Source: an uncultured archaeon (GTDB lineage Archaea; Asgardarchaeota; Thorarchaeia; Thorarchaeales; Thorarchaeaceae). Taken from it: a stretch of 18,749 nucleotides of DNA. Shown in pieces: positions 2 to 18,748 of this stretch. The stretch is from NCBI GenBank assembly GCA_964610875.1, contig CAZSWP010000058.1, forward strand, positions 1 through 18,749. The letters run 5' to 3'. Made by a program: the position numbers and the translations under genes. Numbering within the stretch: position 1 is the stretch's first letter; the number at the start of each line of letters is the position of its first letter. A model generated the notes under the pieces. The model made no database searches, had not been told where the DNA came from, and saw only the letters and a program-made list of their open reading frames with translations.

Positions 2-499
2 TTTGACGCGATAATTGGTGTTGGTGCAGCCTCCGCATACATTTTAGCAGCAGTATCTTCTCTCTATGGTGAAAAAGTCTATACGTTTGCTCGAGAAACC
101 ATGGTCATCTTTGGGACATCAGTGGCGTTGCTGGCTTTTCCAGATATTCAGGGTGGACGATGGGAAAATAGTCCTCTCTGGATTGCAATTATGATAATAG
201 CTTTAATTGGCCTTATACTGTTCATTCAGGTTGCTTATCGGATTTACAGAGCAGGATCTGGAATTGGTGCAGTGAGGTTACTTCTATTTATCTTCGCCTC
301 TATTGTAATTGCATATGTGACTATGTACTCAGATGAGATTGAAACAGTGGTGGCCTATACATTGCTAATAGTATCTGGAATACTTGCAGTAGTCAGTAGT
401 CCGGTTTTCACAAAAATGTTCAGAAGATCCAGAAAAAGGAGAGTTGAACCGAGTACTGAAATTCTGAGGTCGGAGAATTCAACTCGATACTCTCTATAG
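2..499 (+). CDS. Polytopic membrane protein A (5'-partial), paralog of the 1864..3231 protein
   Basis: The frame is open from base 2 (FDAIIGVGAASAYILAAVSSLYGEKVYTFARET) into the ORF at 101, so that ATG is internal. It aligns by eye with the C-terminal five TMs of 1864..3231 (LAAVS, RWExxPL, VAY, RxLLFxFA, SSP) and has a polybasic tail, KMFRRSRKRR. Confidence 0.85.
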   Translation, partial: FDAIIGVGAASAYILAAVSSLYGEKVYTFARETMVIFGTSVALLAFPDIQGGRWENSPLWIAIMIIALIGLILFIQVAYRIYRAGSGIGAVRLLLFIFASIVIAYVTMYSDEIETVVAYTLLIVSGILAVVSSPVFTKMFRRSRKRRVEPSTEILRSENSTRYSL

Positions 500-509
500 G
501 TGACATAAA

Positions 510-1061
510 ATGACAATCGTGAAGGCAGTGGTTCTTGGAGATACTGAGGTAGGCAAGACCTCGTTTACTACGAGGTATACCACCGGAAATTTTCCCGATC
601 CTGAGTTCCTAAAAACAACAATAGGAGCCTCTTTCGATACTAAGAAAGTTAGTCTTCCTTCCGGAAATAATGTAACATTATCCATATTTGATTTCGGAGG
701 ACAGATGCGTTTCATCGAGAGTTTCAAAATAATGATTCGTGGAGCTGTTATAGGACTCCTCTTCTTTGATGTTACTCGACTCCAGACTTTAGATAATCTT
801 GAGAACTATTGGTTACCAGCCATAGAAGACAATAGTATCTTGAAATTGAAGGAGGGTGATGGGAAACGCTTCATTATAGTAGGAAACAAGATTGACCTTA
901 TTGACAGTGAACGAATTGATTTCATACAATCCGAGATGATTCCAATTCTTGAAGAATATCATATGCGTGGAGGATTCATATCTGCAAGAACAGGTGTTGG
1001 GTTCGAAGCACTGGATAGAGAATTTCTAAAACTCGTAGATACTTATGGAATCGCTGAATAG
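510..1061 (+). CDS. Rab-like small GTPase A (Ras superfamily)
   Basis: G1 GDTEVGKTS, G2 TTIGASF, G3 DFGGQ, G4 NKID, G5 SART. AGGTGA RBS (498-503) overlaps the upstream stop. No C-terminal Cys prenylation motif. Confidence 0.95.
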   Translation: MTIVKAVVLGDTEVGKTSFTTRYTTGNFPDPEFLKTTIGASFDTKKVSLPSGNNVTLSIFDFGGQMRFIESFKIMIRGAVIGLLFFDVTRLQTLDNLENYWLPAIEDNSILKLKEGDGKRFIIVGNKIDLIDSERIDFIQSEMIPILEEYHMRGGFISARTGVGFEALDREFLKLVDTYGIAE

Positions 1062-1175
1062 ATTCGCTTTTCATACTATTAGTAGATATCTGAAAATCAT
1101 TTATTATATCCAAAAAATGTCAGAATTATTAGATATGCCATTTATTGGCTAGATAAACTGTTGGAGTAAACGATA

Positions 1176-1460
1176 TTGCAACTAATCATGTCTTGCCCAA
1201 GATGTTCCAAGGGAGCAATCCTGACTCTGGATGATGATGAGGTCGAATCAGTTAAGGAAGCGATTGTTGAGAAGGGAAGGTCACCTACTCTTCTTGCACG
1301 ATGTGAAAGTGGTCATGAACTTATAGTCACACTCTATGTTCGAGATGGTGAGTTGGGTGTTCGTGATATTGCTGTACCTTTGGATTCCAAGCGTGATGAG
1401 AAGGAACCTGAGAAAGCAAAGAGCGAACTGGATTGGGTAAAGGACGTTTTCGGAGGATAG
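1176..1460 (+). CDS. Small zinc-finger protein (CxxC...CxxxH)
   Basis: CPRC and CESGH putative metal ligands, TTG start preceded by GGAG, C-terminal amphipathic-looking segment ELDWVKDVFGG. Confidence 0.75.
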   Translation: MQLIMSCPRCSKGAILTLDDDEVESVKEAIVEKGRSPTLLARCESGHELIVTLYVRDGELGVRDIAVPLDSKRDEKEPEKAKSELDWVKDVFGG

Positions 1461-1467
1461 TGATTCA

Positions 1468-1845
1468 ATGGTTGTAAGACTTGTGGCAAAAGTACAAGCT
1501 GACAATATGGAACCGACAGTTTTGTATCCAGTAGATGGTGTTGATCAGGAGCGAATTGCACTATTAACAGGAATAGTTCAACTTGTTTCAGCGGCTCTTC
1601 AAAGAAGTGGACCTTCTACACTAGGAGAATTCACGCCAAATTTTATGAAATCAGAACGTGGCGTTATCGGATATTGTAGTATGGGTTCATATCTAATCAT
1701 CTGTGAAGGTGACAATGAAGAGGAAACAGGTTCAGCCCTGAAGGCGGCTTATGATGGACGGGATCTATCAAAGATGGATTTTGCACAAAAAGACATGAAA
1801 GAGGTTCAGCAACGCAGTAGGGAGATGGGAGATCTTTGGAAATAG
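1468..1845 (+). CDS. Putative longin/roadblock-superfamily protein
   Basis: 125 aa with an apparent beta-beta-alpha-beta-beta-beta-alpha-alpha pattern: VVRLVAKV / PTVLY / ERIALLTGIVQLVSAAL / FMKS / VIGYCS / YLIICEG / helices. It lies next to small GTPases. The fold call is by eye. Confidence 0.55.
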   Translation: MVVRLVAKVQADNMEPTVLYPVDGVDQERIALLTGIVQLVSAALQRSGPSTLGEFTPNFMKSERGVIGYCSMGSYLIICEGDNEEETGSALKAAYDGRDLSKMDFAQKDMKEVQQRSREMGDLWK

Positions 1846-1863
1846 AATGGGAGGTATAAATGA

Positions 1864-3231
1864 ATGGACTTTTTCTTAGCATTTCTAATCGCGATAACAA
1901 TAGTTTCCATATTACTCTATGCATCACTTAGTGCATTTATAGTAAGACTAAAGCGGATTTATGAAGATGTGAGCATCCCCGTTGGTAGAGCTCTGATTTG
2001 GTATGGCATTTCTGCGTTCTTGATGGGTACAATGGCACTGAATAATCTCTTCAACCCACAATTTGGTATGGTTATGGTGGCTCTGACATTTGGGACACTA
2101 TTAATATCTCAGCTACATCTAGTCATGACAAAACAGAAATCGATAAACTACTCGATTATCTTAATCTTTCTTTCATCTGGAATTGCTACAATTGAAACTT
2201 ACTACAGATGGATTCTCCCAGGAGTACCAATCATAACGGTGGTGGTGTTACTCTTCCTTCTCGTTTCAAGTCTAATTACGGCATTATATCTTGTTAGAGA
2301 GAGTCCAAATCCCTTTACAGCATCCATCCTGACTGTTGTGATTCTACTAATTATTGCTTCAGTAACTGTGATGACACTGAAACTATCTTATAATCCACAA
2401 TTCTTTATCATCCAACTTGCTCCTGTTATAGTTACTGCAGGAGTTACCGGAGCACTTCTGCAGCCATGGAGAAGAATCATCACTTACTCAGTATTGTTCA
2501 CTGCTATAAGTGTTGGAGGAGGTATTGCACTAGCAGCCTACTTAACTGGTGATTTTGTAATTTGGACTTTTGTGACTGTGGCAACCTTTGCAACGATATG
2601 TACAATCTTTCCAATGGACTTCTTCATTGATCAAGCAGCAAAAACAAGGTCGTCAACAGCTTTCTATATTTCTGTATGCGTGGCTATGATTGCTCTACTT
2701 GTGATAACTCATGCTAACAATTATGCAATCGCCAATAGTTATATCAATTCATGGGACCCATACATACTCTTTGTAGATTGGATTTTCGGTATCTTTGGGG
2801 TTAGTGCATTCTTACTTGCGGCTGTGTCAGCAAGCTTCACGGCAAATGCGCGGCATGCAACAAAAGAGTTACTGATTGGTATTGGTATGACTTTGATTAC
2901 TCTGGGAAGTCCTCCAGTACGATTCATTACACTGGATAATGGGGTAGTTTTGGAACGATGGGAGCTTGATCCTCTTTATCTTGGCATTTTCGCCCTACTG
3001 ATTGTCGCATTTGTAGTTTTCTTCAGAGTAGCCTATCAGCTCATCAAGATGGGATCAAAAGGAGCTGCTGCTAGATTCTTACTCTTCATGTTTGCAACAC
3101 TTGGTCTCGGAATTGTAGCTATGTTCGCAGACTTAATTGCTCTCGAAATATTGCTACCAACAATGACTGTTGCAGGGGTATTTCTAATATTCAGCAGTCC
3201 TAGGACTTTAGGCAGGTCTGAAAAAGGATGA
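1864..3231 (+). CDS. Polytopic membrane protein B (~15 hydrophobic segments), function unknown
   Basis: 455 aa, hydrophobic throughout, GGAGGT RBS upstream. No MFS, ABC or other transporter motif recognised. Paralog of 2..499. Confidence 0.85.
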   Translation: MDFFLAFLIAITIVSILLYASLSAFIVRLKRIYEDVSIPVGRALIWYGISAFLMGTMALNNLFNPQFGMVMVALTFGTLLISQLHLVMTKQKSINYSIILIFLSSGIATIETYYRWILPGVPIITVVVLLFLLVSSLITALYLVRESPNPFTASILTVVILLIIASVTVMTLKLSYNPQFFIIQLAPVIVTAGVTGALLQPWRRIITYSVLFTAISVGGGIALAAYLTGDFVIWTFVTVATFATICTIFPMDFFIDQAAKTRSSTAFYISVCVAMIALLVITHANNYAIANSYINSWDPYILFVDWIFGIFGVSAFLLAAVSASFTANARHATKELLIGIGMTLITLGSPPVRFITLDNGVVLERWELDPLYLGIFALLIVAFVVFFRVAYQLIKMGSKGAAARFLLFMFATLGLGIVAMFADLIALEILLPTMTVAGVFLIFSSPRTLGRSEKG

Positions 3232-3284
3232 TAAGTCACGATGTACACCCTGATAGTAAAGCAGGGAAAAAGGTGTCTAATCGA

Positions 3285-3824
3285 ATGAGTATAGTAAAAA
3301 CGGTTGTCCTTGGTGATAGTGAAGTGGGCAAGACTTCATTTACTACACGCTGGACGCAAGGCACCTTTCCAAATCCCGAGTCTCTCAAGACTACTATTGG
3401 CGCATCCTTTGATACCAAGAAGGTTGAACTCACCGATGGACGAATGGTTACAATTTCGTGCTGGGATTTTGGTGGTCAAAAACGATTCATTGAGGCTCTT
3501 AAGGGCATGGTCAAGGGTGCGAAGCTGGGGGTACTCTTTTTTGACGCTTCTCACTTACCAAGTCTTGACAGTCTGTACAATTATTGGATACCTCTTCTGG
3601 AGAAAGAAGGAGGATTTGATTTCTCATCTGGTGATGGTAAACGTTTCATCCTTGTGGCAAATAAGATAGACCTACTAAGCGGTCAGTTTGATTCCATATG
3701 TGAAGAGATGGAGAACTTCTGTGCGAAGTACGGTACTGAACAGGCCATGATCTCTGCAAAAACTGGAGTTGGTATAGAGAAATTAGATATGATTTTCGAA
3801 GGAATGTTAGAAGAATTCTCCTAA
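3285..3824 (+). CDS. Rab-like small GTPase B (paralog of 510..1061)
   Basis: G1 GDSEVGKTS, G2 TTIGASF, G3 WDFGGQ, G4 NKID, G5 SAKT. The likely start is ATG 3285 (MSIVK, matching MTIVK of paralog A; AGGTG at 3271-3275). An alternative start at 3228 overlaps the upstream stop (ATGA). Confidence 0.95.
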   Translation: MSIVKTVVLGDSEVGKTSFTTRWTQGTFPNPESLKTTIGASFDTKKVELTDGRMVTISCWDFGGQKRFIEALKGMVKGAKLGVLFFDASHLPSLDSLYNYWIPLLEKEGGFDFSSGDGKRFILVANKIDLLSGQFDSICEEMENFCAKYGTEQAMISAKTGVGIEKLDMIFEGMLEEFS

Positions 3825-3876: not shown

Positions 3877-4353
3877 TTACCCACCAGGACTACCGTGCCA
3901 TGGAGAGTCTTTCCACAGGATATCCCAGATGAGGTCCTCCGTTAAGGTTTCTGGCTCAATAGCTGCTTTGTGAAGCTCCTTTAGGAGCGCATGATGTCGA
4001 ATTTCATCTTCACGAATCATAGATGCAATCGTCTTGACCTGTTCATTATCACTGTTCTCTACAAGTTCTCCATATGTTTTAATGGCTTCAGCTTCCAGAT
4101 CAATATGTGTCTGAATACCTTTGGCAATCTTGTCACGCTCCTCCATACTAATGAAGGGAGTTGGGCCCTCTACAGCTGAACGAAGTGATTTGAGAAGAGC
4201 CGCATGCTTTATTGAATCTTGAGAAATACCAATCAGCAAGTCCTTGACAAATGCATTACCAAGTTGTGAAACATTCTCTTCAACAATTTTGATTATTCGT
4301 TCCTCAAGCTCAATTTGTTTGTCAATAAACGCCAGTGTTTCTTCTTTATCCAT
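3877..4353 (-). CDS. Ferritin-like/rubrerythrin-family diiron four-helix bundle protein
   Basis: Two repeated halves, E...DSIKH and E...EDEIRH, typical of ferritin-like diiron sites. No rubredoxin CxxC pairs. Confidence 0.85.
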   Translation of the reverse strand: MDKEETLAFIDKQIELEERIIKIVEENVSQLGNAFVKDLLIGISQDSIKHAALLKSLRSAVEGPTPFISMEERDKIAKGIQTHIDLEAEAIKTYGELVENSDNEQVKTIASMIREDEIRHHALLKELHKAAIEPETLTEDLIWDILWKDSPWHGSPGG

Positions 4354-4420: not shown

Positions 4421-7321
4421 CTAACTCGGGATTGGTATAGTGAGATGAAATACTGAACCAGAAATTCCGTCACTACGAGGTTTGTATTTTATAGTTCCGC
4501 CATAACCTTCAATGACTCGTTGGCTAAGGTAAAGTCCCAATCCACTTCCACGAATTGATGTGCCCTTTTCAAATAGTTTCTTGACTAGTTTTGGTTCTAC
4601 TCCTGGACCATCATCAATAAAATCTATTTGAACCTCATCTTTACTTAACTTGAAACGGATATCCACAACCGGATTTTCTCCAGCATATTCTGCCGCATTA
4701 CGGAGAAGATTGTCAAAGACCATTGGTAAGAGTCGGCCTCCTGACACTCTTATTCCCTCTATTTCTTGTTTGTTTATCATAGTTATTTTTAGATGAGGAT
4801 GAATCTCATTTGCTCTTGATACAGCTTCCTCTACGAGAGGAAGAATTGTTTTTGTTGTTGAGGTTTCCACACTCCTCTCTTGAAAAATTTGTAGAACTCT
4901 GGCCATTCTTGTTGCACTAGCTTGAGTCACATCGAGTATTTCAGCAACCTTCTTTTCATCCATTCCTAGAATCTGCCCGGATTCTATTTGATTCAAAATT
5001 AATTGTAAATCATTTCCAAAATCATGTCTAAGAAGCGATGTATACAATTCTAGGTCTCTATAGGAATGTTTCAACTCTTCTTCAGCATTTACCCTTCTTG
5101 TTACATCTCTTGAAACACTCACGACAGAGATACCATCTTCATGTAATGAGAGATTAGCTGAGAACCATAATTTCTTTCCATCAATTACTAGTGGATAGTC
5201 AACCGATGTGGGTTTACCAGTTCTTCTGACTTTATGGATTCCCTCAATGATTACTTTCGCAATGTCTACTGGCAGGGCATTAATTAGTTTTGAACCTACA
5301 AGTGTTTGTAAGTCACCATATAATATCGATCTGTCTGAAGCAAATATTGAAGCATAACGATCTTCCTTATCAAATACAAATACAAGATCGTGCATCGATT
5401 GAATCATAGTACGTAATTGAACTTCGCTTAGTTCCCTTGCCTCTTGTTCTATTCTACGTCCAAGGACTGCTGAAAACATATCTGCAAGAGCTCGAAAGAA
5501 TGTTCTATCATCGTCACTCAATTCTTTAGGTGCAAATGATGATACATTCAAGACTCCAATTACACTATTTCCTGAACTGATTAATGGCCATATCACAGAT
5601 GAATTAAGTGACCACTCTCTGATTGATTCAACATACTCATTCTTGATGGTGGAGGCTTCTGTATTAGGAATAAAGAATCCTTGTTTTGAAAAAGCTGCGT
5701 GAGCACCAAGATGATGTCCCTCTTTAAAATCAACCATAGGATATGAGTAGGTGAGTTTCTCTTGTTCGACACCATAACTTGCTACTAATTCAAGTTGATT
5801 GTTTTCAGGATTCAAGAGACGTACGGTACCTATATCGAACTCAAGTGTTTCTACAATGCTTTGCAGTGCTTTTTCACTTAGAGATTCAATGTTAGTTGCC
5901 AAAATCGCAGCTTCTGCAATGGAACGATATGCCTGTCGTTCTTTTCTCAGCTTATCCTCCGTCTTTCTATGCTCAGTAATATCATTAATAATCGCGACCA
6001 TGGCGTAATGCTCTTGGTGAGGATTGAGTGCAATTGTAATCTCTACTTGAATAAGTGAATCTGAAGTAGTAAGAATCTCTCCCTCAAAAGTCATATTATC
6101 TACTGTACCTTTCTTATCGAATATTTCCTCTGCCAATGTTTTCAATTGCCAAAGAGTTCTAGGTGGAAACAGCTTATCGAGTGGTTCACTAAGAATATCT
6201 TCTCTCTCAATGCCGAAAAGTCTCACTGCAGAGGGATTCCAATGCGTGATTTGTAATTCTATATCGACTGCTAATACTGCATACGGGATAAGATTCAGGA
6301 GAGATTCTTGACTTGATTGTGCAAGCATTAGCTGTCCTAACAACTCTCTGTTCTCAATCGCAGAAAGCGTTGCTTCAGAAAGCATATCTCCGATGACTAG
6401 AATCGCATCTTCAGATTCATCCTGTAAGACCAAAGGACTACAGGGCGATACTAGAATTTCATCTGCTGAGATATATGATAGGATTGGAAGATTCTCATAT
6501 GAAGTATAATTCATCATCCTGTCTGAATGACTCTTAGAGAGTGCCATGACGAACCTTGGTTTCTTAATTGACCCATGTAACAAAGCATCGCGAAGTGCAA
6601 AATCTAATGGATCAATATCATGCTCAAGATACAGATCATTTATGGCTCCAATTCCAAGTCGCAAATTGGTTTCCAATACTACCAATACAATTGCATCTCT
6701 ATAGAGACGCTTGCCACATATGACTGCACTCTTATGTTTACTTGAATGTGGTTTAGCTATAGCTCCAATAATTCCAATGCAATTGGTATTCACATTTCTC
6801 TTTACGATTTCGAATAGATCATTTGGTTTTGTTACATTCGAATGTTGCAGTCCAATGCTACCAAATAACAAACCTGTTACACTTCGTCCTTTTGCTGAAA
6901 TCTCATTCCATATCTCACTATTTATATCAAAATATTCTGCAATCTCTGAGTTTTCTATTAGTTCTTTTATCCTGTTCTCAGGATTATCTGATACACTACT
7001 TACGAATGAAACCGTTGCTTTAACAAAGGGAGAAGCTAGAATTATGATTTGAAGGTTCACATATTTATTACCAAAATCTGGCTCGCTTGTAGCCATCCCT
7101 ACTATCGGCACATCTTCTAATATTTCACCAATTCCACGAAGTGATTCGGTCAAATTCAGTTCGCAGGATGAAAAGATGAATGCTATTACTGGTGAGTGTT
7201 CTTTTATCATATCAAGAGCTTCTGAAGCAAGCCTTTTTCCCAATACTCTTGCATTCTTATGGGAACCTGAGGAAAAACCTACTTCAAAATTAGCCACTTT
7301 CAATCTCTTCTTAAATTTCAA
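4421..7321 (-). CDS. Cytoplasmic sensor histidine kinase: FIST-like N-terminus, PAS, GAF, PAS, HisKA, HATPase
   Basis: H-box LLRHDFGNDL, N-box FDNLLRNA, G1 DDGPG, G2 GSGLGL. PAS signatures WNPSAVRLFG...DITE and ...RDVT. GAF PLISSGNSVIGVL. The N-terminus resembles FIST (AFIFSS...VPIVGMATSE). TTG start is uncertain. Confidence 0.9.
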   Translation of the reverse strand: MKFKKRLKVANFEVGFSSGSHKNARVLGKRLASEALDMIKEHSPVIAFIFSSCELNLTESLRGIGEILEDVPIVGMATSEPDFGNKYVNLQIIILASPFVKATVSFVSSVSDNPENRIKELIENSEIAEYFDINSEIWNEISAKGRSVTGLLFGSIGLQHSNVTKPNDLFEIVKRNVNTNCIGIIGAIAKPHSSKHKSAVICGKRLYRDAIVLVVLETNLRLGIGAINDLYLEHDIDPLDFALRDALLHGSIKKPRFVMALSKSHSDRMMNYTSYENLPILSYISADEILVSPCSPLVLQDESEDAILVIGDMLSEATLSAIENRELLGQLMLAQSSQESLLNLIPYAVLAVDIELQITHWNPSAVRLFGIEREDILSEPLDKLFPPRTLWQLKTLAEEIFDKKGTVDNMTFEGEILTTSDSLIQVEITIALNPHQEHYAMVAIINDITEHRKTEDKLRKERQAYRSIAEAAILATNIESLSEKALQSIVETLEFDIGTVRLLNPENNQLELVASYGVEQEKLTYSYPMVDFKEGHHLGAHAAFSKQGFFIPNTEASTIKNEYVESIREWSLNSSVIWPLISSGNSVIGVLNVSSFAPKELSDDDRTFFRALADMFSAVLGRRIEQEARELSEVQLRTMIQSMHDLVFVFDKEDRYASIFASDRSILYGDLQTLVGSKLINALPVDIAKVIIEGIHKVRRTGKPTSVDYPLVIDGKKLWFSANLSLHEDGISVVSVSRDVTRRVNAEEELKHSYRDLELYTSLLRHDFGNDLQLILNQIESGQILGMDEKKVAEILDVTQASATRMARVLQIFQERSVETSTTKTILPLVEEAVSRANEIHPHLKITMINKQEIEGIRVSGGRLLPMVFDNLLRNAAEYAGENPVVDIRFKLSKDEVQIDFIDDGPGVEPKLVKKLFEKGTSIRGSGLGLYLSQRVIEGYGGTIKYKPRSDGISGSVFHLTIPIPS

Positions 7322-8546: not shown

Positions 8547-9470
8547 ATGTACGATCTTTTCATTATAGGAAGTGGTGTTACTGGGTATGGTGCTGCTATG
8601 TATGCTGCTCGGCTTGATCTGACAGTAGCTTTGATGGGTGATGTGGAAGGAGGTACAATTACTCTCACAGATGACGTGGCAAATTATCCTGGATTCATTC
8701 AACTCACTGGGCTGGAGTTAGCTGGAAAATTGCGGGAGCATGCATTAGACTATGCTGTTCATATTGAAACTGGCACTGTTGAGGATGTTTTTCAAGATGA
8801 GCAAGACTTCTTCTACATTGTTGGTGACAAAAAGACATTCCTAGCAAGGTCAATACTTTTTGCTACTGGGATGAAAGAGAGAGAACTGGAGGTCCCTGGA
8901 CATGATGAGTTAAAAAACCGAGGAGTCAGTTATTGTGCCCTATGTGATGCTCCATTATTCAAGAACAAGGTTGTGGCTGTTGTGGGAGGAAGTGACAGTG
9001 CTGCGAAGGAAGCATTGCTTCTGGCGAAATATTGTTCTAAAGTCTATATTATCTATCGGAGAAAGAAAATACGCCCTGAACCAATCAATGCACGGCGAAT
9101 CGAGAAGGAGCCTAAGATTGAGATTATCACAGAAACTAATGTAACTGAAATACTAGGAGAAGATCGAGTTACTGGGGTGAAACTTGATAATCCCTACAAT
9201 GGTTCTGTTACTCTTGACTTAGATGGCGTCTTCATCGCGATAGGTGGCATTCCCTATTCCTCACTTGCTGAGAAACTTGGAGTAGAGCTAAATCAGAAAA
9301 AGGAAATTATTATTGATCGCTCCAGTAGAACAAATATCCAAGGAGTTTTTGCAGCTGGTGATGTCGTAGACTCCGAATTTAAGCAGGCAATCACTGGTGT
9401 AGCAGAAGGTGTTCATGCAGCTTATCAAACATACAAATACGTGAATGAAAGAGAACTACTACTCAAGTAA
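8547..9470 (+). CDS. trxB: Thioredoxin-disulfide reductase
   Basis: FAD motif IIGSGVTG, NYPG, ATG motif, GVSYCALCD active site, NAD(P)H motif VVGGSDSA, C-terminal GVFAAGD...QAITGVAEG. Confidence 0.95.
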   Translation: MYDLFIIGSGVTGYGAAMYAARLDLTVALMGDVEGGTITLTDDVANYPGFIQLTGLELAGKLREHALDYAVHIETGTVEDVFQDEQDFFYIVGDKKTFLARSILFATGMKERELEVPGHDELKNRGVSYCALCDAPLFKNKVVAVVGGSDSAAKEALLLAKYCSKVYIIYRRKKIRPEPINARRIEKEPKIEIITETNVTEILGEDRVTGVKLDNPYNGSVTLDLDGVFIAIGGIPYSSLAEKLGVELNQKKEIIIDRSSRTNIQGVFAAGDVVDSEFKQAITGVAEGVHAAYQTYKYVNERELLLK

Positions 9471-9838: not shown

Positions 9839-10483
9839 TCAATCTGTTGCATCATAGAGTTTCTCAATAAAGGAATCTGGTGGAATTGCACCATCAAGAT
9901 GGATATCCTCGTTGATTATTGTTTTTGGAACACCAAATACACTGTACTTGTTTGCAAGGTCTTGGAATTCCAGTGATTCGACCATATCTGCTTCAATTAA
10001 TGGATTCAGTATTGCCGCATAATGAGCTAGTCTTACCATGTCTGGGCAATAGGGACACTGAGGAGTGGTGAAGACCTGGATGTGAATAGGCTTATCGATA
10101 TCTTTGATATCAGCTATCATATCTTCTTCAAGTGGCACTCTACCAGTTGATACAGCAATGATTCCTGCAATAAGAGCTCCAAATTCATGACCTGCGGGAA
10201 TACCATAAAATCGGACCTTGTATGCATCAGCTCCGTGTAGAACAATCGCAGGTTGATGTTTTACTCCCATCTCAGCAGCTTTCCCGGTTCCAATATCATC
10301 ATTATGAACCTCTATTTTTACTTTCTTCGAAAGATCTGCAACTTGAGTCACAAGCTCCTTCGTATCACCACAATACAGACAATCATGATCTTTCACAAAA
10401 AGATGAATTGTCACTTCAGTATCGAGTGCTGCAAACATCATCTTGACTTGTTCTCTTGTTTCTTCATCCATTTGAACTACCAT
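9839..10483 (-). CDS. Protein disulfide oxidoreductase (PDO; two thioredoxin folds, AhpF-NTD-like)
   Basis: CLYC and CPYC active sites, RFYGIPAGHEF, VFTTPQCPYCP, GVPKTIINE. The likely start is ATG 10483 (MVVQMDEE) after GGAG, rather than 10531. Confidence 0.93.
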   Translation of the reverse strand: MVVQMDEETREQVKMMFAALDTEVTIHLFVKDHDCLYCGDTKELVTQVADLSKKVKIEVHNDDIGTGKAAEMGVKHQPAIVLHGADAYKVRFYGIPAGHEFGALIAGIIAVSTGRVPLEEDMIADIKDIDKPIHIQVFTTPQCPYCPDMVRLAHYAAILNPLIEADMVESLEFQDLANKYSVFGVPKTIINEDIHLDGAIPPDSFIEKLYDATD

Positions 10484-10550
10484 TTGACACTCAACTCCAT
10501 GTTCCGAGTATTTGCTATTGATGACTATCACATTAACTATATTTAACTGT

Positions 10551-10925: not shown

Positions 10926-11993
10926 CTAAATCCAAGAGATTCTATCATCGTCTACCAGTTCATCTATAGCAAAGGGAATGTTCTTCTTCTTCTTGAGTTT
11001 TGCTGCCGCAGTTAATTCGGTTTGGTCACTAATAGTAAGGTCTTCAAGATCGTTACATGAGAAGAGTGGCGAAATATCCAAAGAACTGAATTCGTTCTCC
11101 TCAGGATGATTACTGTACAGATAAAGTTCTTCGAGGGATTTACAATTTCCAAGTGGTGTTAGATCTATTGATTCTAAACGGTTTCCTGCAATATCCAGAG
11201 CTCGTAATTGAGTACAATTTCTCAATGGGTCGAGATCAAGATATTCTATTTTATTCATAGCTAAGCCGAGACGACTCAGTTCAGTGCAGTTTTCAAGGGG
11301 TTTGAGGTCGAGGCTCTCAAGTTGATTTCCTCCTAGTCGCAAGATTTTGAGTTCTTTCCAATTTGCCATCGGTGAGAGATCCATCTGCGTTAGAGTGTTA
11401 TGATGAAGATAGAGGTAAGTCATCTTATTGCAGGCTGCTAGTGGCGTTAAGTCAATGCTGGATAATTCATTATACATGAGATTAAGTTGAGAAAGGTTAG
11501 CACAGTGTTTCAATGGACTGAGGTCTATTTCTGACAGCTGATTATTCTCCAACTCCAGAATTTCTAATGTTTCAAGGTCGACAAGAGGCGAAAGGTCAAT
11601 CTCGGAGATTGCATTATTAAATAACCTAAGCCTAACGAGTGAGGTGAAAGCCAGAGGAATGAGATCTATATCTGGTATTCCTGTTGTACCGAGATTCAGC
11701 TCCCGCAGGTTCGTACATCCCTTCAGTGGTTTGATATCGAGGTTGGATAGTTCATTTTTAAAGAGGCTAAGGAATTGTAATCCTTCACATGTACCAAGTG
11801 GTGAGAGATCAATAGAAGTGAGTCTATTTGATCCAAGATCTAGAATTAGAGGTTCTTTTATTCCCTCCAAGGGTGAAAGGTCAATACTCACAATGTTCTT
11901 CCTACTCAAATCTAATTTCTCATCCTCTGTATCATAATCTACAGTTACTGTTCTATCATCCTTATCCGTATAGTTAAGTACAACCTCTGACAC
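10926..11993 (-). CDS. Leucine-rich repeat protein (~12 repeats, mostly 24 aa)
   Basis: Repeated LxxLxLxxNxLxxIDLxPL. The likely start is GTG 11993 after GAGG (12004-12001); the ORF track start is 12068. No signal peptide or TM segment. Confidence 0.92.
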   Translation of the reverse strand: MSEVVLNYTDKDDRTVTVDYDTEDEKLDLSRKNIVSIDLSPLEGIKEPLILDLGSNRLTSIDLSPLGTCEGLQFLSLFKNELSNLDIKPLKGCTNLRELNLGTTGIPDIDLIPLAFTSLVRLRLFNNAISEIDLSPLVDLETLEILELENNQLSEIDLSPLKHCANLSQLNLMYNELSSIDLTPLAACNKMTYLYLHHNTLTQMDLSPMANWKELKILRLGGNQLESLDLKPLENCTELSRLGLAMNKIEYLDLDPLRNCTQLRALDIAGNRLESIDLTPLGNCKSLEELYLYSNHPEENEFSSLDISPLFSCNDLEDLTISDQTELTAAAKLKKKKNIPFAIDELVDDDRISWI

Positions 11994-12232
11994 GTGAATT
12001 CCTCGTTTTTTTCGAATATGATTTGAAAAACCACTGGTACATTTCAATGTTACCGGCTTGTGTTCCAATCAAAATTTCAATGAAGTTTCAGGATATCAGC
12101 TTACCGCTTACTGTGTCATTCCGTGCTTTTATGAGAGATTTTATGTCTACTTCCACACATCTAGAGTCCTTTAACTATACATTTTTTAACAAAAAAACTT
12201 CGCAATTCCCATTCGAGTGGAGTTGACTACAT

Positions 12233-12598
12233 TTGGAAAAAATGACATTGGGGATACTCCTCCTCACTAGTCCCTACACATTTGAAAACAGTCACACATT
12301 CTATGACCTTGCAAGGGCTGCCCTCGATAAGGGCTACAAGGTCAAAGCTTTCCTATTTGTGGATGCTGTGAATAATGCGAAGCTAAACCAAGAACCTGAT
12401 CCTGATAGACCAATGAATGATAAGTTCCAAGAACTCGCTGAGGATGGTCTTGAATTTCAGGCCTGTGGTCTATGTACATCTGCTAGAGGTTTTGATCAAG
12501 CGGGTGGCGATTTCATCCCTGGTGTTGAGGTTTCGGGACTTACAGAGCTAGCTGAGATTGTCGGCGAGTGTGATAGATTTGTTACGTTCACAATGTAG
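12233..12598 (+). CDS. dsrE: DsrE/TusD-family sulfur relay protein
   Basis: TSPY, ARAALDKG, FLFVDAV, catalytic-Cys region ACGLCTSARG, SGLTELAE...DRFVTF. Start is TTG 12233 or ATG 12242. Confidence 0.88.
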   Translation: MEKMTLGILLLTSPYTFENSHTFYDLARAALDKGYKVKAFLFVDAVNNAKLNQEPDPDRPMNDKFQELAEDGLEFQACGLCTSARGFDQAGGDFIPGVEVSGLTELAEIVGECDRFVTFTM

Positions 12599-12609
12599 GT
12601 GATGGAAAG

Positions 12610-12960
12610 ATGGAATTTGTTGAACGACCAGTATTATTGCTCATTAGGAGTAGACCCTTTGGGAACATTATTAATTTCGAGGGATGGCGTGCATCTGTTG
12701 GAATGTTTGGAATGGACCATGAACCAACTATGTTATTCATAGGTGAAGGTGTCTACGCGCTCTTGAAGAATATTGACGATATGCCAATTAGGATGTTCAA
12801 GTCAACCTATCAGAGTTTTGATGGAAGAATATGTGTGAGTAAACGTTCTCTCGAAGAGAGGAATATCTCCCCGGATGAGATTATCGAAGACGCGGAGATA
12901 ATAGATGAAGAAGAGGTTGGTAAAGCATTTGTTGAGAATGAGATTGTCGTTACATTCTAA
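12610..12960 (+). CDS. dsrF: DsrF/TusC-family sulfur relay protein
   Basis: RSRPFG...EG.R, LFIGEGVYALLK, SLEERNI, terminal VVTF. Follows dsrE with an AGGTGA RBS. Confidence 0.85.
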   Translation: MEFVERPVLLLIRSRPFGNIINFEGWRASVGMFGMDHEPTMLFIGEGVYALLKNIDDMPIRMFKSTYQSFDGRICVSKRSLEERNISPDEIIEDAEIIDEEEVGKAFVENEIVVTF

Positions 12961-12972
12961 GGTGAAGAAAAA

Positions 12973-13272
12973 ATGAAATTTCTCATATGGTTATCAAATG
13001 AATGCAGAAGTTTAGATGAAGTGATTGGTTCCATTACCTCCCAAGGTCATGAAGTTGGTGTTCTTCTAATTCAAGATGCTGTATTCCTCGCAGATAAGGG
13101 ATGTTCACATAATGAAGAAGTTAATTCTTATGGAGTACCTCTCTATCTTGCAAAACATCATGCCGAAGAACGTGGTATATTAGATCGGCTTGAAGGTAAC
13201 GTCAAGATTGTAGATTATCCAGAGATCATTGATCTCATGATGGAAGAATATGACCGTGTAATCTCAGTATAG
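12973..13272 (+). CDS. dsrH: DsrH/TusB-family sulfur relay protein
   Basis: VLLIQDAV, HAEERGI, VDYPEIIDLMMEEYDRVISV. Third gene of the operon, with an AGGTGA RBS. Confidence 0.85.
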   Translation: MKFLIWLSNECRSLDEVIGSITSQGHEVGVLLIQDAVFLADKGCSHNEEVNSYGVPLYLAKHHAEERGILDRLEGNVKIVDYPEIIDLMMEEYDRVISV

Positions 13273-17050: not shown

Positions 17051-18748
17051 CTATAGGAAAACATCCTCCAATTTGTCTTGGTAATCAGTAAAGAATTCTT
17101 CAAATTCTCTGTATTTTTTTATGGCTCCTCTAGCTTGTTCTGCAATCTCATTTTCTATAGAGTCTTCTAGTCGTGGGACTAAAACCTGATTCATTATGTC
17201 ATCCGGATAAATATGGGCGGTTGTACCTTTGACACAAGATCTGAATTGCTCATTTATGTGAGGTAGACGAAGGACGCTAAGCAAATAGAAAGGGTCTATT
17301 TTTGTAGCATCTGCTCGAATGATGAGCAATTCTGCACACGCCATACATTTCTTTTCAGGTAAAGCATCAAGAATATCTATATTTTTGGCAATGTATTCTG
17401 GTTTATGGGCTGAAGCAATTACCAAGATATCATTTAACTGCAAATGAGCTCTTTCCTTTCCATTGAAAAGCTCTAATGGAACATGACCTCTCCTATCAAA
17501 ATTGAATTCCAAAAAGCGGTTCGTGAGATTTCTCACCTTGAAGATTGGAACACCAGAATTTGTATAATCCTGCCATTTAGGAGTGAAACCTCTGAAAACA
17601 GTAGCAATTTTTCCAAGTTTTTGATGTTCTCCCTTTCCGATTTTCTCATGTAGAAGATAAGTTGCTACTCTAAGATTCCTTCTAGCTTCTGAAATATCAC
17701 TGATTGTTATGATTTCGAATTGATCTTCTGAAATTCTGATATCCTTTTCATCTTCAAGAAAATCGTGGAAATATGGTACAATAGATAAGAATCCATTATC
17801 TCCATTTCCTTTTCTTCGGCCAGTTGAATCGTATCCTAAAGAATGAACTTTGGCCATGAATATTGATTTAGTCTTGTCGTTTGGATTGTTTTTCTTTTGA
17901 AAGAACAAAATAGTTGTCTTTGCTTGAGCTCCATAAGGATTGAAGGTCTCTGAAGGTAATGATACTACAGCTTGGATGATAGATTCTTGAAAAAGGAATT
18001 CGAGAACAATTTTATCAGTTAAGTTGACATCTGGAATTACAAAAGCAGCTCTCCCTCCTGGTTTTAGGAGTTCTATTGCTCTTTCTAAAACTAGAATTTC
18101 CAGCGCAATGGATTTATATTTTGTAGCCATTTCAAAACGATTCTTATAGTCCTTCAAATTTGATTTCTTACCAAACGGTGGATTTGTGAGAAGTATATCA
18201 AATCCTGCTTCCTCAATTCGCCTTTTTGCGAAGCTAGCATGTGAGAAACTAGCCAATGCATCACCTAACACCAAATTAGGTACCTTCTTGGTGTCAAATA
18301 TGAATCCCAAATAACAGGCTTCTGCTACATTGGAATCGATTTCAATTCCATTGACTGGATATTGGATTATATTATCGCCCGTACGTTCATACTTGATTTG
18401 GTGTTTCAATGCTTCTTGTAAAAATCCTCCAGTGCCGCAACAGGGGTCGATTATCCTTTCTTCGGGTTTAGGATCAATCATGGATACTGTTGGAATTACA
18501 ACTTCAAAGGGTGTGAAGTATTGTCCTGATTGTCCTCTTAGATAACCTCCTAGGAAGGCTTGGTAAGCTTCACCTTTAATGTCAAAATCAGTATTTGCAA
18601 TACTAATCGGAGATAACTCATCAATGATTTTTTCAATTGTTTCGATATTCCGAATGCCTAAAGATGATGAGAAAAATCCCCGTCCAAGTGGAAGATTACT
18701 CTCATAGATATTTCGAAGTCTATTGAATAATTGTTGTGGACTTTCACC
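17051..18748 (-). CDS. N6-adenine DNA methyltransferase (HsdM-like) fused to an HsdS-like target recognition domain; 5'-partial
   Basis: The frame is open to the window edge (…DIKGEAYQAFLGGYLRGQSGQYFTP). Motif I DPCCGTGGFL, motif IV NPPF, LKPGGRAAFVIP. The C-terminal region is TRD-like: LGKIATVFRG.TP, GVPIFKVRNL, DILV, GTT.HI. Confidence 0.9.
   Translation of the reverse strand, partial: GESPQQLFNRLRNIYESNLPLGRGFFSSSLGIRNIETIEKIIDELSPISIANTDFDIKGEAYQAFLGGYLRGQSGQYFTPFEVVIPTVSMIDPKPEERIIDPCCGTGGFLQEALKHQIKYERTGDNIIQYPVNGIEIDSNVAEACYLGFIFDTKKVPNLVLGDALASFSHASFAKRRIEEAGFDILLTNPPFGKKSNLKDYKNRFEMATKYKSIALEILVLERAIELLKPGGRAAFVIPDVNLTDKIVLEFLFQESIIQAVVSLPSETFNPYGAQAKTTILFFQKKNNPNDKTKSIFMAKVHSLGYDSTGRRKGNGDNGFLSIVPYFHDFLEDEKDIRISEDQFEIITISDISEARRNLRVATYLLHEKIGKGEHQKLGKIATVFRGFTPKWQDYTNSGVPIFKVRNLTNRFLEFNFDRRGHVPLELFNGKERAHLQLNDILVIASAHKPEYIAKNIDILDALPEKKCMACAELLIIRADATKIDPFYLLSVLRLPHINEQFRSCVKGTTAHIYPDDIMNQVLVPRLEDSIENEIAEQARGAIKKYREFEEFFTDYQDKLEDVFL

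Follow-up and report, generated by a model that had tools for sequence, protein, structure and literature searches.

Tandem paralogous four-gene operons in Thorarchaeaceae encode a candidate membrane-associated small-GTPase switch

The genomes of Asgard archaea, close relatives of eukaryotes, contain genes for dozens of Rab-, Arf- and Rag-like GTPases alongside numerous longin and roadblock proteins. Here we analysed an 18,749-nucleotide window of DNA from an uncultured archaeon of the Thorarchaeaceae (assembly GCA_964610875.1, contig CAZSWP010000058.1) that begins at the end of its contig (G000:C58:1) with a run of genes encoding Rab-like GTPases, a longin-fold protein, a putative Zn-ribbon protein and polytopic membrane proteins. 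Our results indicate that this region consists of two tandem paralogous four-gene operons, and we favor, with moderate confidence, a model in which their products together constitute a membrane-associated small-GTPase switch. As reconstructed from the sequence, the order Zn-ribbon, longin, membrane protein, GTPase is repeated twice in tandem, and the window holds the downstream one and a half copies: the end of an upstream cassette, A, and the whole of a downstream cassette, B.

Open reading frame listing and translation place six closely spaced plus-strand genes at 2–3824, in agreement with the original prediction. The first (2–499) encodes the C-terminal 165 residues of membrane protein A, comprising its last five transmembrane (TM) helices and a basic tail, and is followed by GTPase A (510–1061, 183 amino acids (aa)). 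Cassette B then comprises the Zn-ribbon protein (1176–1460, 94 aa from a TTG at 1176, with an alternative ATG at 1188), the longin (1468–1845, 125 aa), the membrane protein (1864–3231, 455 aa) and the GTPase (3228–3824, 198 aa). The start of GTPase B overlaps the upstream stop codon (ATGA), and an alternative ATG at 3285 would give a 179-aa protein whose start matches that of its paralogue. Gaps inside the cassettes measure 7–18 nucleotides or are replaced by overlaps, and GGAG(G) motifs precede the starts. The sole gap of more than 20 nucleotides within the six genes is the AT-rich inter-cassette spacer at 1062–1175 on the same strand; it probably serves cassette B as promoter and leader, since it contains TATA-like stretches and a GGAG motif 9 nucleotides before the TTG start.

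The original prediction described two membrane protein/GTPase pairs with regulators between them, and proposed that the upstream DNA be inspected for another Zn finger/longin copy. The paralogy of both the GTPases and the membrane proteins is upheld: the reading frame at 2–499 is colinear with residues 305–454 of the 455-aa membrane protein (30% identity, E 1e-19), and the two GTPases are more similar still, as described below. The description as a self-contained module also stands; the unit, however, is a four-gene cassette running from Zn-ribbon through longin and membrane protein to GTPase, rather than a pair with intervening regulators. The additional upstream copy lies on a second contig of the same assembly, C94 (L004; 5.7 kb), which we recovered by searching the assembly with the membrane protein. 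The minus strand of this contig encodes the N-terminal 304 residues of membrane protein A (3–914, running off the end; aligning with residues 1–301 of the paralogue), a 124-aa longin A (930–1304) and Zn-ribbon A (1311–1595). When the reverse complement of C94 is placed before the start of the window, the two share a 3-nucleotide overlap and read in frame into a 469-aa protein that is colinear with its 455-aa paralogue. The join is further supported by relatives in genus g12, in which an IOR-type oxidoreductase, found on the C94 flank, and a ferritin-like protein and thioredoxin reductase, found on the window flank, bracket one locus.

Evidence that the four genes belong together comes from their distribution. 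We mapped the four families with phmmer across 40 loci from 14 genera, and in all 40 a Zn-ribbon gene is followed on the same strand by a longin gene, one or two membrane protein genes and a GTPase gene. A gene order that recurs in this way is far beyond chance. The original prediction would have been refuted had membrane protein homologues usually lacked an adjacent GTPase; instead, the GTPase lies immediately downstream of the membrane protein in every locus of sufficient length. Loci differ in how the cassette is deployed: some carry a single cassette, some a cassette with two tandem membrane genes and some full tandem cassettes (G324, G325, G328, G323), three of these (G324, G325, G328) repeating the A-to-B arrangement of the window. 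In G336 the first copy of a tandem pair lacks the GTPase. The number of cassettes per genome ranges from 0 to 3. Of 86 genomes of the window's family, 40 encode the membrane protein, and precisely these 40 also encode the longin, with identical counts in each genus; the longin always adjoins the membrane protein and has no copies elsewhere, both longins of the window genome lying in cassettes.

The cassettes have also diverged as sets. When cassettes were scored against the A and B paralogues of the window, all four genes agreed in type (A or B) wherever the type was clear, and the tree of the GTPases, like that of the longins, divides into A and B clades, with the upstream cassette falling in A and the downstream one in B. 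Loss follows a related pattern: in genus g12 (L094 G375:C1, L095 G372:C1 and L096 G377:C48) the orthologous locus retains a truncated Zn-ribbon without its C-terminal motif and a cassette-type GTPase, while the longin and membrane genes are missing together. Altogether these data show that the four genes behave as one set in inheritance, duplication, loss and diversification; they form one evolutionary unit and, judged by operon structure, one unit of expression. They also leave very little room for the idea that the genes are chance neighbours in one lineage whose adjacency has no functional meaning. We consider this hardly credible in view of the invariant order, the exact co-occurrence, the co-divergence and the joint loss of two parts, and also because a distantly homologous family, discussed below, keeps the four parts despite a change in gene order and does so across Asgard classes.

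Apart from the window genome, the membrane protein was found in 39 of 85 genomes of the family, spanning the 14 genera, and in none of 315 genomes from 32 other families in a 400-genome sample of the phylum. A full hidden Markov model (HMM) scan of 1.84 billion representatives returned 67 relatives, and in a 5.8-billion-protein collection every homologue is either labelled Candidatus Thorarchaeota or unlabelled. The weak full-length matches are labelled Odinarchaeia and Asgardarchaeia. An Asgardarchaeia-like metagenome contig with a distant homologue carries the four genes in identical order; it was the only genomic context recovered in scans of genome contigs and metagenomes, which did not yield that of the Odinarchaeia-labelled homologues.

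Both window GTPases are members of the Ras family (Pfam PF00071, E 1.9e-23 for A and 1.8e-21 for B, above the cut-off) and are 56% identical to one another (E 4e-70), the next-best GTPase in the genome reaching at most 42%. The canonical G1–G5 motifs LGDxExGKT, TTxGASFD, DFGGQ, NKiDL and SAkTG are conserved across 38 homologues, as are the catalytic Gln and a switch I of the form FPDP...TTxGASFD. The best relatives of known structure are the Thorarchaeota Rab 7EZB followed by Rab28, Ypt7/Rab7 and Rab18, with E values from 1e-19 to 1e-15 in PDB matches, and by Rab9. Neither window GTPase has a C-terminal Cys for prenylation, and any Cys in the last six residues is present in just 3 of the 38 homologues, consistent with the earlier description of these proteins as Rab-like and unprenylated. 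We also considered an MglA-type assignment and rejected it: the G3 motif is WDFGGQ with a conserved Asp, not the Thr of TxxGQ. We regard the cassette GTPase as Rab-like rather than MglA-type. On the Asgardarchaeia-like contig (L091) the GTPase frame (3204–3782, plus strand) is intact and open from just past the membrane-gene stop, and has no ATG, GTG or TTG ahead of the P-loop; translation may begin at an ATA or ATT codon or be coupled to the upstream gene.

The 125-aa protein had been described as longin-like from its sequence, and its predicted fold confirms this. An AF2 model built from a 27-sequence alignment (pLDDT 77) places strands at 5–10, 16–20, 58–62, 65–72 and 75–81 and helices at 27–45, 84–96 and 102–123, giving the topology b-b-a-b-b-b-a-a, which is the longin order without an N-terminal helix. 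The top 50 matches in a VIA search all belong to the longin/roadblock superfamily (Z 9.8–7.0). Full-length matches (Z 9.7–7.4) include DENND1A (Z 9.7 over residues 1–124), BLOC-3 (9.0), TRAPP (8.8), CPLANE (8.7), VAMP7 (8.1), the Loki longin 8YQG (8.0) and Mon1-Ccz1, and in Foldseek the best match is AP2 sigma (E 6.6e-4), followed by Asgard roadblocks, zeta-COP and Sec22b. A roadblock/LC7 topology of the MglB kind was rejected, as the model opens with two strands and the roadblock matches span residues 1–100 only. The window longin matches no Pfam or NCBIfam family, and among its 27 homologues there are only single sub-threshold Pfam matches, to Robl_LC7 (E 0.08) and Intu_longin_1 (E 0.12).

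The longin could be a GTPase-activating protein (GAP), as MglB is for MglA, in which case the cassette would encode a polarity or localisation switch with the membrane protein marking the site where the GTPase is turned off. This possibility deserves to be taken seriously, though we find it clearly less probable than the model we favor. Among prokaryotes, those roadblock partners of small GTPases that have been characterised act as GAPs (MglB and the conservon protein MfpD: PMC4316618, PMC13015309), MglB itself is among the structural matches (Z 8.1), and Arg29, at the start of longin helix 1, is invariant. However, the GTPase is not of the MglA type and retains both the G3 Asp and the catalytic Gln, and the modelled topology is that of a longin and not a roadblock. 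In addition, GAP longins of the FLCN/SMCR8/NPRL2 type combine a GP motif in the b1-b2 loop with an arginine finger (PMC12290439), and the GP motif is not seen in this loop of our longin alignment, where the consensus is xLDxMxS. We therefore regard a role as guanine nucleotide exchange factor (GEF) as somewhat more likely than one as GAP, because the fold, including its full-length structural matches, and the weak profile matches of the longin-like protein of a second cassette family, described below, point towards Rab-GEF longins and the GP motif is absent.

The membrane protein had been described simply as polytopic. It is polytopic, but this description is too slight: it models as two receptor-type seven-transmembrane (7TM) bundles in one chain. 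The AF2 model (39 sequences, pLDDT 93.8, pTM 0.91) has 15 TM helices, with one 7TM bundle at residues 1–204, a linker helix at 203–228 and a second 7TM bundle at 229–455. Because the linker helix joins the two bundles, both would share the same orientation, and the mean count of Lys plus Arg per protein in the predicted loops of 39 homologues, 16.0 inside versus 3.7 outside, argues for an N-out/C-in topology. In VIA searches the top 50 matches for either half are G-protein-coupled receptors (GPCRs), designed GPCR-like folds, microbial rhodopsins or OST-alpha (Z 15.1–10.5). Residues 1–204 match ADGRL3 (Z 15.1, root-mean-square deviation 3.9 over 194 residues), designed GPCR-like folds (Z 13.9 and 13.6) and mGlu5 and GABA-B (Z 13.6), and residues 229–455 match ADGRV1 (Z 13.5) and CD97 (Z 13.4). 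A rhodopsin assignment was rejected, as there is no Lys in helix 178–197 or helix 427–444 at the place of the retinal Lys of helix 7. In the broad alignment most of the conserved residues map to cytoplasmic loops; the conserved residues include F151 in an SPNPF motif, R203 in PWR, G397 and A401 in a basic loop and P446 in the tail. In the ESM Atlas the protein falls in unnamed clusters, the nearest named one being HisKA_7TM (10% share, score 0.87).

The receptor-like fold raises the possibility of an archaeal pathway from a 7TM receptor to a small G protein, in which the double-7TM protein would be a genuine receptor for signals and would govern, jointly with the longin, nucleotide exchange on its own Rab-like GTPase. 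We consider this quite improbable as a specific reading. The likeness to GPCR–G protein signalling comprises N-out/C-in seven-helix bundles, conserved cytoplasmic loops and genetic coupling to a GTPase. Unlike GPCRs, however, the Asgard protein has two bundles per chain and lacks a GPCR-class sequence signature, the resemblance being one of predicted fold; and unlike GPCR signalling the GTPase is small and Rab-like rather than a heterotrimeric G-alpha, and a longin and a Zn-ribbon are present in addition.

Conversely, the membrane protein could be the regulated target, a transporter, channel or lipid-handling protein gated by the GTPase, with the longin and Zn-ribbon tuning the GTPase to a cytosolic cue. 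Such an arrangement would resemble Rag–Ragulator with the transporter SLC38A9. It would also fit the size of the membrane protein, the largest part of the cassette and the one most often duplicated (one or two copies per cassette), and the fact that 7TM folds include transporters, OST-alpha and ion-pumping rhodopsins being among the matches. The cassette encodes no effector, an observation that favors this alternative and weighs against our model. Nonetheless, we think it unlikely: the protein has no sequence match to any transporter family, its structural matches are overwhelmingly receptors, both bundles lack the retinal lysine of rhodopsins and the conserved residues lie on cytoplasmic loops rather than along a membrane-embedded polar pathway.

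The fourth component appears to be a Zn-ribbon protein with a predicted zinc-binding set: C3, P4, C6, C39 and H43 (CPxC...C-x3-H) are invariant in 21 homologues, including the distant Asgardarchaeia-like one. The 94-aa protein scores 19.9 bits against Pfam Zn_ribbon_Brz, for which the cut-off is 27.9, and, like the membrane protein and the longin, it has no above-threshold match to a Pfam, NCBIfam or PDB profile. Its further features are a GRSPT motif of which GRSP is conserved, an RD motif, a charged linker and a C-terminal DW-x4-FG, which is kept even in the distant homologue. A ubiquitin-like reading of a C-terminal GG was rejected, since many homologues extend past the GG or end in FG.

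How might these parts work together? We envision a scenario in which the double-7TM protein serves as membrane partner, its conserved basic cytoplasmic loops holding the soluble GTPase, its regulators or both at the membrane, and possibly senses a ligand or the state of the membrane. The longin, probably as a dimer, would provide a platform that sets the nucleotide state of the GTPase, and the Zn-ribbon protein could be an adaptor whose conserved C-terminal Trp peptide docks on one of the partners from a flexible linker. Cassettes A and B are old paralogues, each with its own cognate components, and would thus form two insulated switches.

Several observations weigh against this scenario in addition to the lack of an effector gene. 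The 7TM assignment derives from a predicted model, and its scores, Z 15.1 for the best match and 10.5 at rank 50, can be reached by helical bundles that share no common ancestry; Foldseek searches with the same model give E values of 0.013 at best. The membrane protein lacks any receptor-class sequence signature, and no Pfam family was found in its 39 homologues at E ≤ 5. An internal duplication that would account for the two bundles was rejected, as hhalign aligns residues 1–204 with 229–455 over just 51 columns at 5.5% probability. The GTPase may work without the membrane protein, since genus g12 keeps it after the loss of the longin and membrane genes. The module is missing from about half of the family genomes, including 7 of the 23 high-quality ones, and is thus dispensable. 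Finally, the longin has no detectable similarity to the longin-like protein of the second family described next, either by hhalign (E 0.087) or in a single-sequence comparison.

This second set of cassettes (loci L097–L139 and L140–L144) was reached through weak Zn-ribbon matches elsewhere in the family genomes. It comprises a Zn-ribbon-like protein, a protein of ~146 aa, a membrane protein of ~460 aa and a Ras-family GTPase, and occurs in 43 of the 86 family genomes, with no match in the window's own genome for the query used. The GTPase comes first or the order is as in the window, and some loci have an extra gene of ~142 aa after the membrane protein. The membrane proteins of the two families are homologous (hhalign 96.7%, E 3.4e-10, 424 colinear columns), as are the Zn-ribbons (97.7%, E 1.7e-12), the second family keeping the C-terminal Trp. 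Its ~146-aa longin-like protein has sub-threshold but convergent matches to Fuz/Mon1/Hps1 longin domain 1 in 6 of 18 members (best E 0.0018) and further ones to Robl_LC7 and LAMTOR3 and, in the PDB, to an Odin roadblock and MON1; these profile matches lean towards a longin of the Rab-GEF type. The second family is also present in 3 of 3 sampled Atabeyarchaeia genomes and in another Asgard family, where the cassette runs from Zn-ribbon through longin-like protein and membrane protein to GTPase; the NCBI annotation there reads ‘Rab family GTPase’ for the last and ‘hypothetical’ for the other parts. In a tree of the Ras-family GTPases of one genome together with cassette representatives, a branch with 99% support separates the cassette GTPases of the two families, along with four long-branch GTPases of that genome, from most of its other Ras-family GTPases. 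As the tree is unrooted and has long branches, the grouping of the cassette GTPases is only suggestive.

The patchiness of the cassette invites one further explanation, that it is an accessory conflict or defence system or the cargo of a mobile element. Its presence in fewer than half of the family genomes, its variable copy number and tandem duplications, and the likewise patchy second family are compatible with this idea. It is nonetheless very improbable: seven proteins from both cassette families matched no PADLOC model, both in the window and on C94 the cassettes are free of flanking integrase, transposase or phage genes, the housekeeping-type genes on either side of the locus are shared between genera and the base composition of the cassettes is like that of the rest of the window.

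Among described systems, the closest is the actinobacterial conservon (CvnA-D of Streptomyces and the Mfp operon of Mycobacterium; PMC4316618). Conservons encode a membrane histidine kinase, a roadblock protein, a DUF742 protein and an MglA-type GTPase, and are present in multiple, sometimes tandem, copies (PMC4316618). Both systems are four-gene operons that join a membrane sensor, a roadblock or longin protein, a small protein and a small Ras-superfamily GTPase, and both exist as several paralogous copies that are sometimes adjacent and from one of which the GTPase is occasionally lost (PMC4316618; here, L061). However, CvnA is a histidine kinase with a HATPase domain, whereas the Asgard membrane protein is a double 7TM protein without a kinase or ATPase domain; in place of the roadblock, DUF742 and MglA-type proteins the Asgard cassette has a longin, a Zn-ribbon and a Rab-like GTPase with a DFGGQ motif; and gene order and host differ, the host here being an Asgard archaeon. 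Since every component family differs, the Asgard cassette is not a member of the conservons.

The pairing of a longin fold with a Rab-type GTPase is shared with the eukaryotic Mon1-Ccz1, BLOC-3, CPLANE/Fuzzy-Inturned, TRAPP core and DENN regulators. The eukaryotic Rab regulators are multi-longin heterodimers, whereas the Asgard cassette has one stand-alone 125-aa longin without sequence-level membership in any of these groups, and Rab recruitment, which in eukaryotes relies on lipids and prenyl groups, would here come from a dedicated polytopic protein. A second parallel is with Rag–Ragulator–SLC38A9 and with SRbeta–SRalpha (SRX), in which a GTPase is held at a membrane through roadblock or longin partners and a membrane protein, as we infer for the cassette; Ragulator subunits, Gse1/Ego and SRX are all among the structural matches of the longin (Z 8–9.8). 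Unlike in these systems, the GTPase is Rab-like rather than Rag- or Arf-like, the membrane protein does not have the APC fold and the parts are separate genes in one operon.

Within the Asgard archaea, an operon encoding a LAMTOR1-like roadblock, a Rab-like GTPase and a DENN protein has been proposed to be a GEF module (Liu et al., bioRxiv 10.1101/2020.10.19.343400). It too is a conserved Asgard neighbourhood that joins a Rab-like GTPase to a protein of the roadblock/longin superfamily, but it includes a DENN protein, which has no match among the cassette proteins of the window, and has neither the membrane protein nor the Zn-ribbon. Tran et al. (2024) described longins in Loki and Odin and reported that in the cultured Lokiarchaeon MK-D1 the genes for GTPases generally share no operon with such regulators (PMC10933270), so GTPase–regulator pairs cannot be read from that genome. 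In a 2026 preprint, Asgard proteins are said to include 7TM proteins and a cluster resembling class C GPCRs, with no link to a GTPase (10.64898/2026.10.28.762692). We found no published description of the four-gene operon in the full-text literature, the scope of our search, with subscription-only papers and supplementary tables falling outside it; for this literature, the earlier claim that the arrangement is undescribed holds.

The operon thus offers a ready-made candidate cognate set of membrane partner, longin, adaptor and GTPase, and its tandem paralogues are natural specificity controls. It bears on which regulator serves which Asgard GTPase and on how GTPases that have no lipid anchor reach membranes, and the second homologous family extends the system to further classes of Asgard archaea. 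The parts are of small size and lend themselves to co-expression, to exchange and hydrolysis assays and to cryo-EM. Such studies could reveal whether the regulation of Rabs by longins and the recruitment to membranes by proteins arose before eukaryotes and, if the 7TM reading is true, would bear on the origin of the coupling of receptors to GTPases.

The cassettes lie among genes of varied predicted function. Divergently upstream of cassette A, C94 (L004) carries a 181-aa reading frame (1918–2463, plus strand) with macro-domain-like residues discerned by eye, followed by two subunits of an enzyme resembling indolepyruvate/2-oxoacid ferredoxin oxidoreductase. Convergent on cassette B is a gene for a 158-aa ferritin-like protein (3877–4353, minus strand) that is kept as downstream neighbour in other genera and has sub-threshold matches to the rubrerythrin, EncFtn-like and encapsulin-cargo families. 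Beyond it lies the gene for a sensor protein of 966 aa that combines FIST, PAS, GAF and HATPase_c domains (4421–7321, minus strand); no receiver-domain protein was found among the window reading frames scanned against Pfam. A thioredoxin reductase (8547–9470) and a thioredoxin-fold protein (9839–10531) lie near three consecutive DsrE/DsrF/DsrH-like genes of a TusBCD-type sulfur relay (12233–13272, plus strand). Between them, at 10926–12068 on the minus strand, is a gene for a leucine-rich-repeat protein of 380 aa (LRR_4, E 1e-31); proteins of this class are reportedly enriched in Asgard archaea. The last gene, at 17051–18748 on the minus strand and running off the end of the window, encodes an N6-adenine DNA methylase with an Eco57I-like region.

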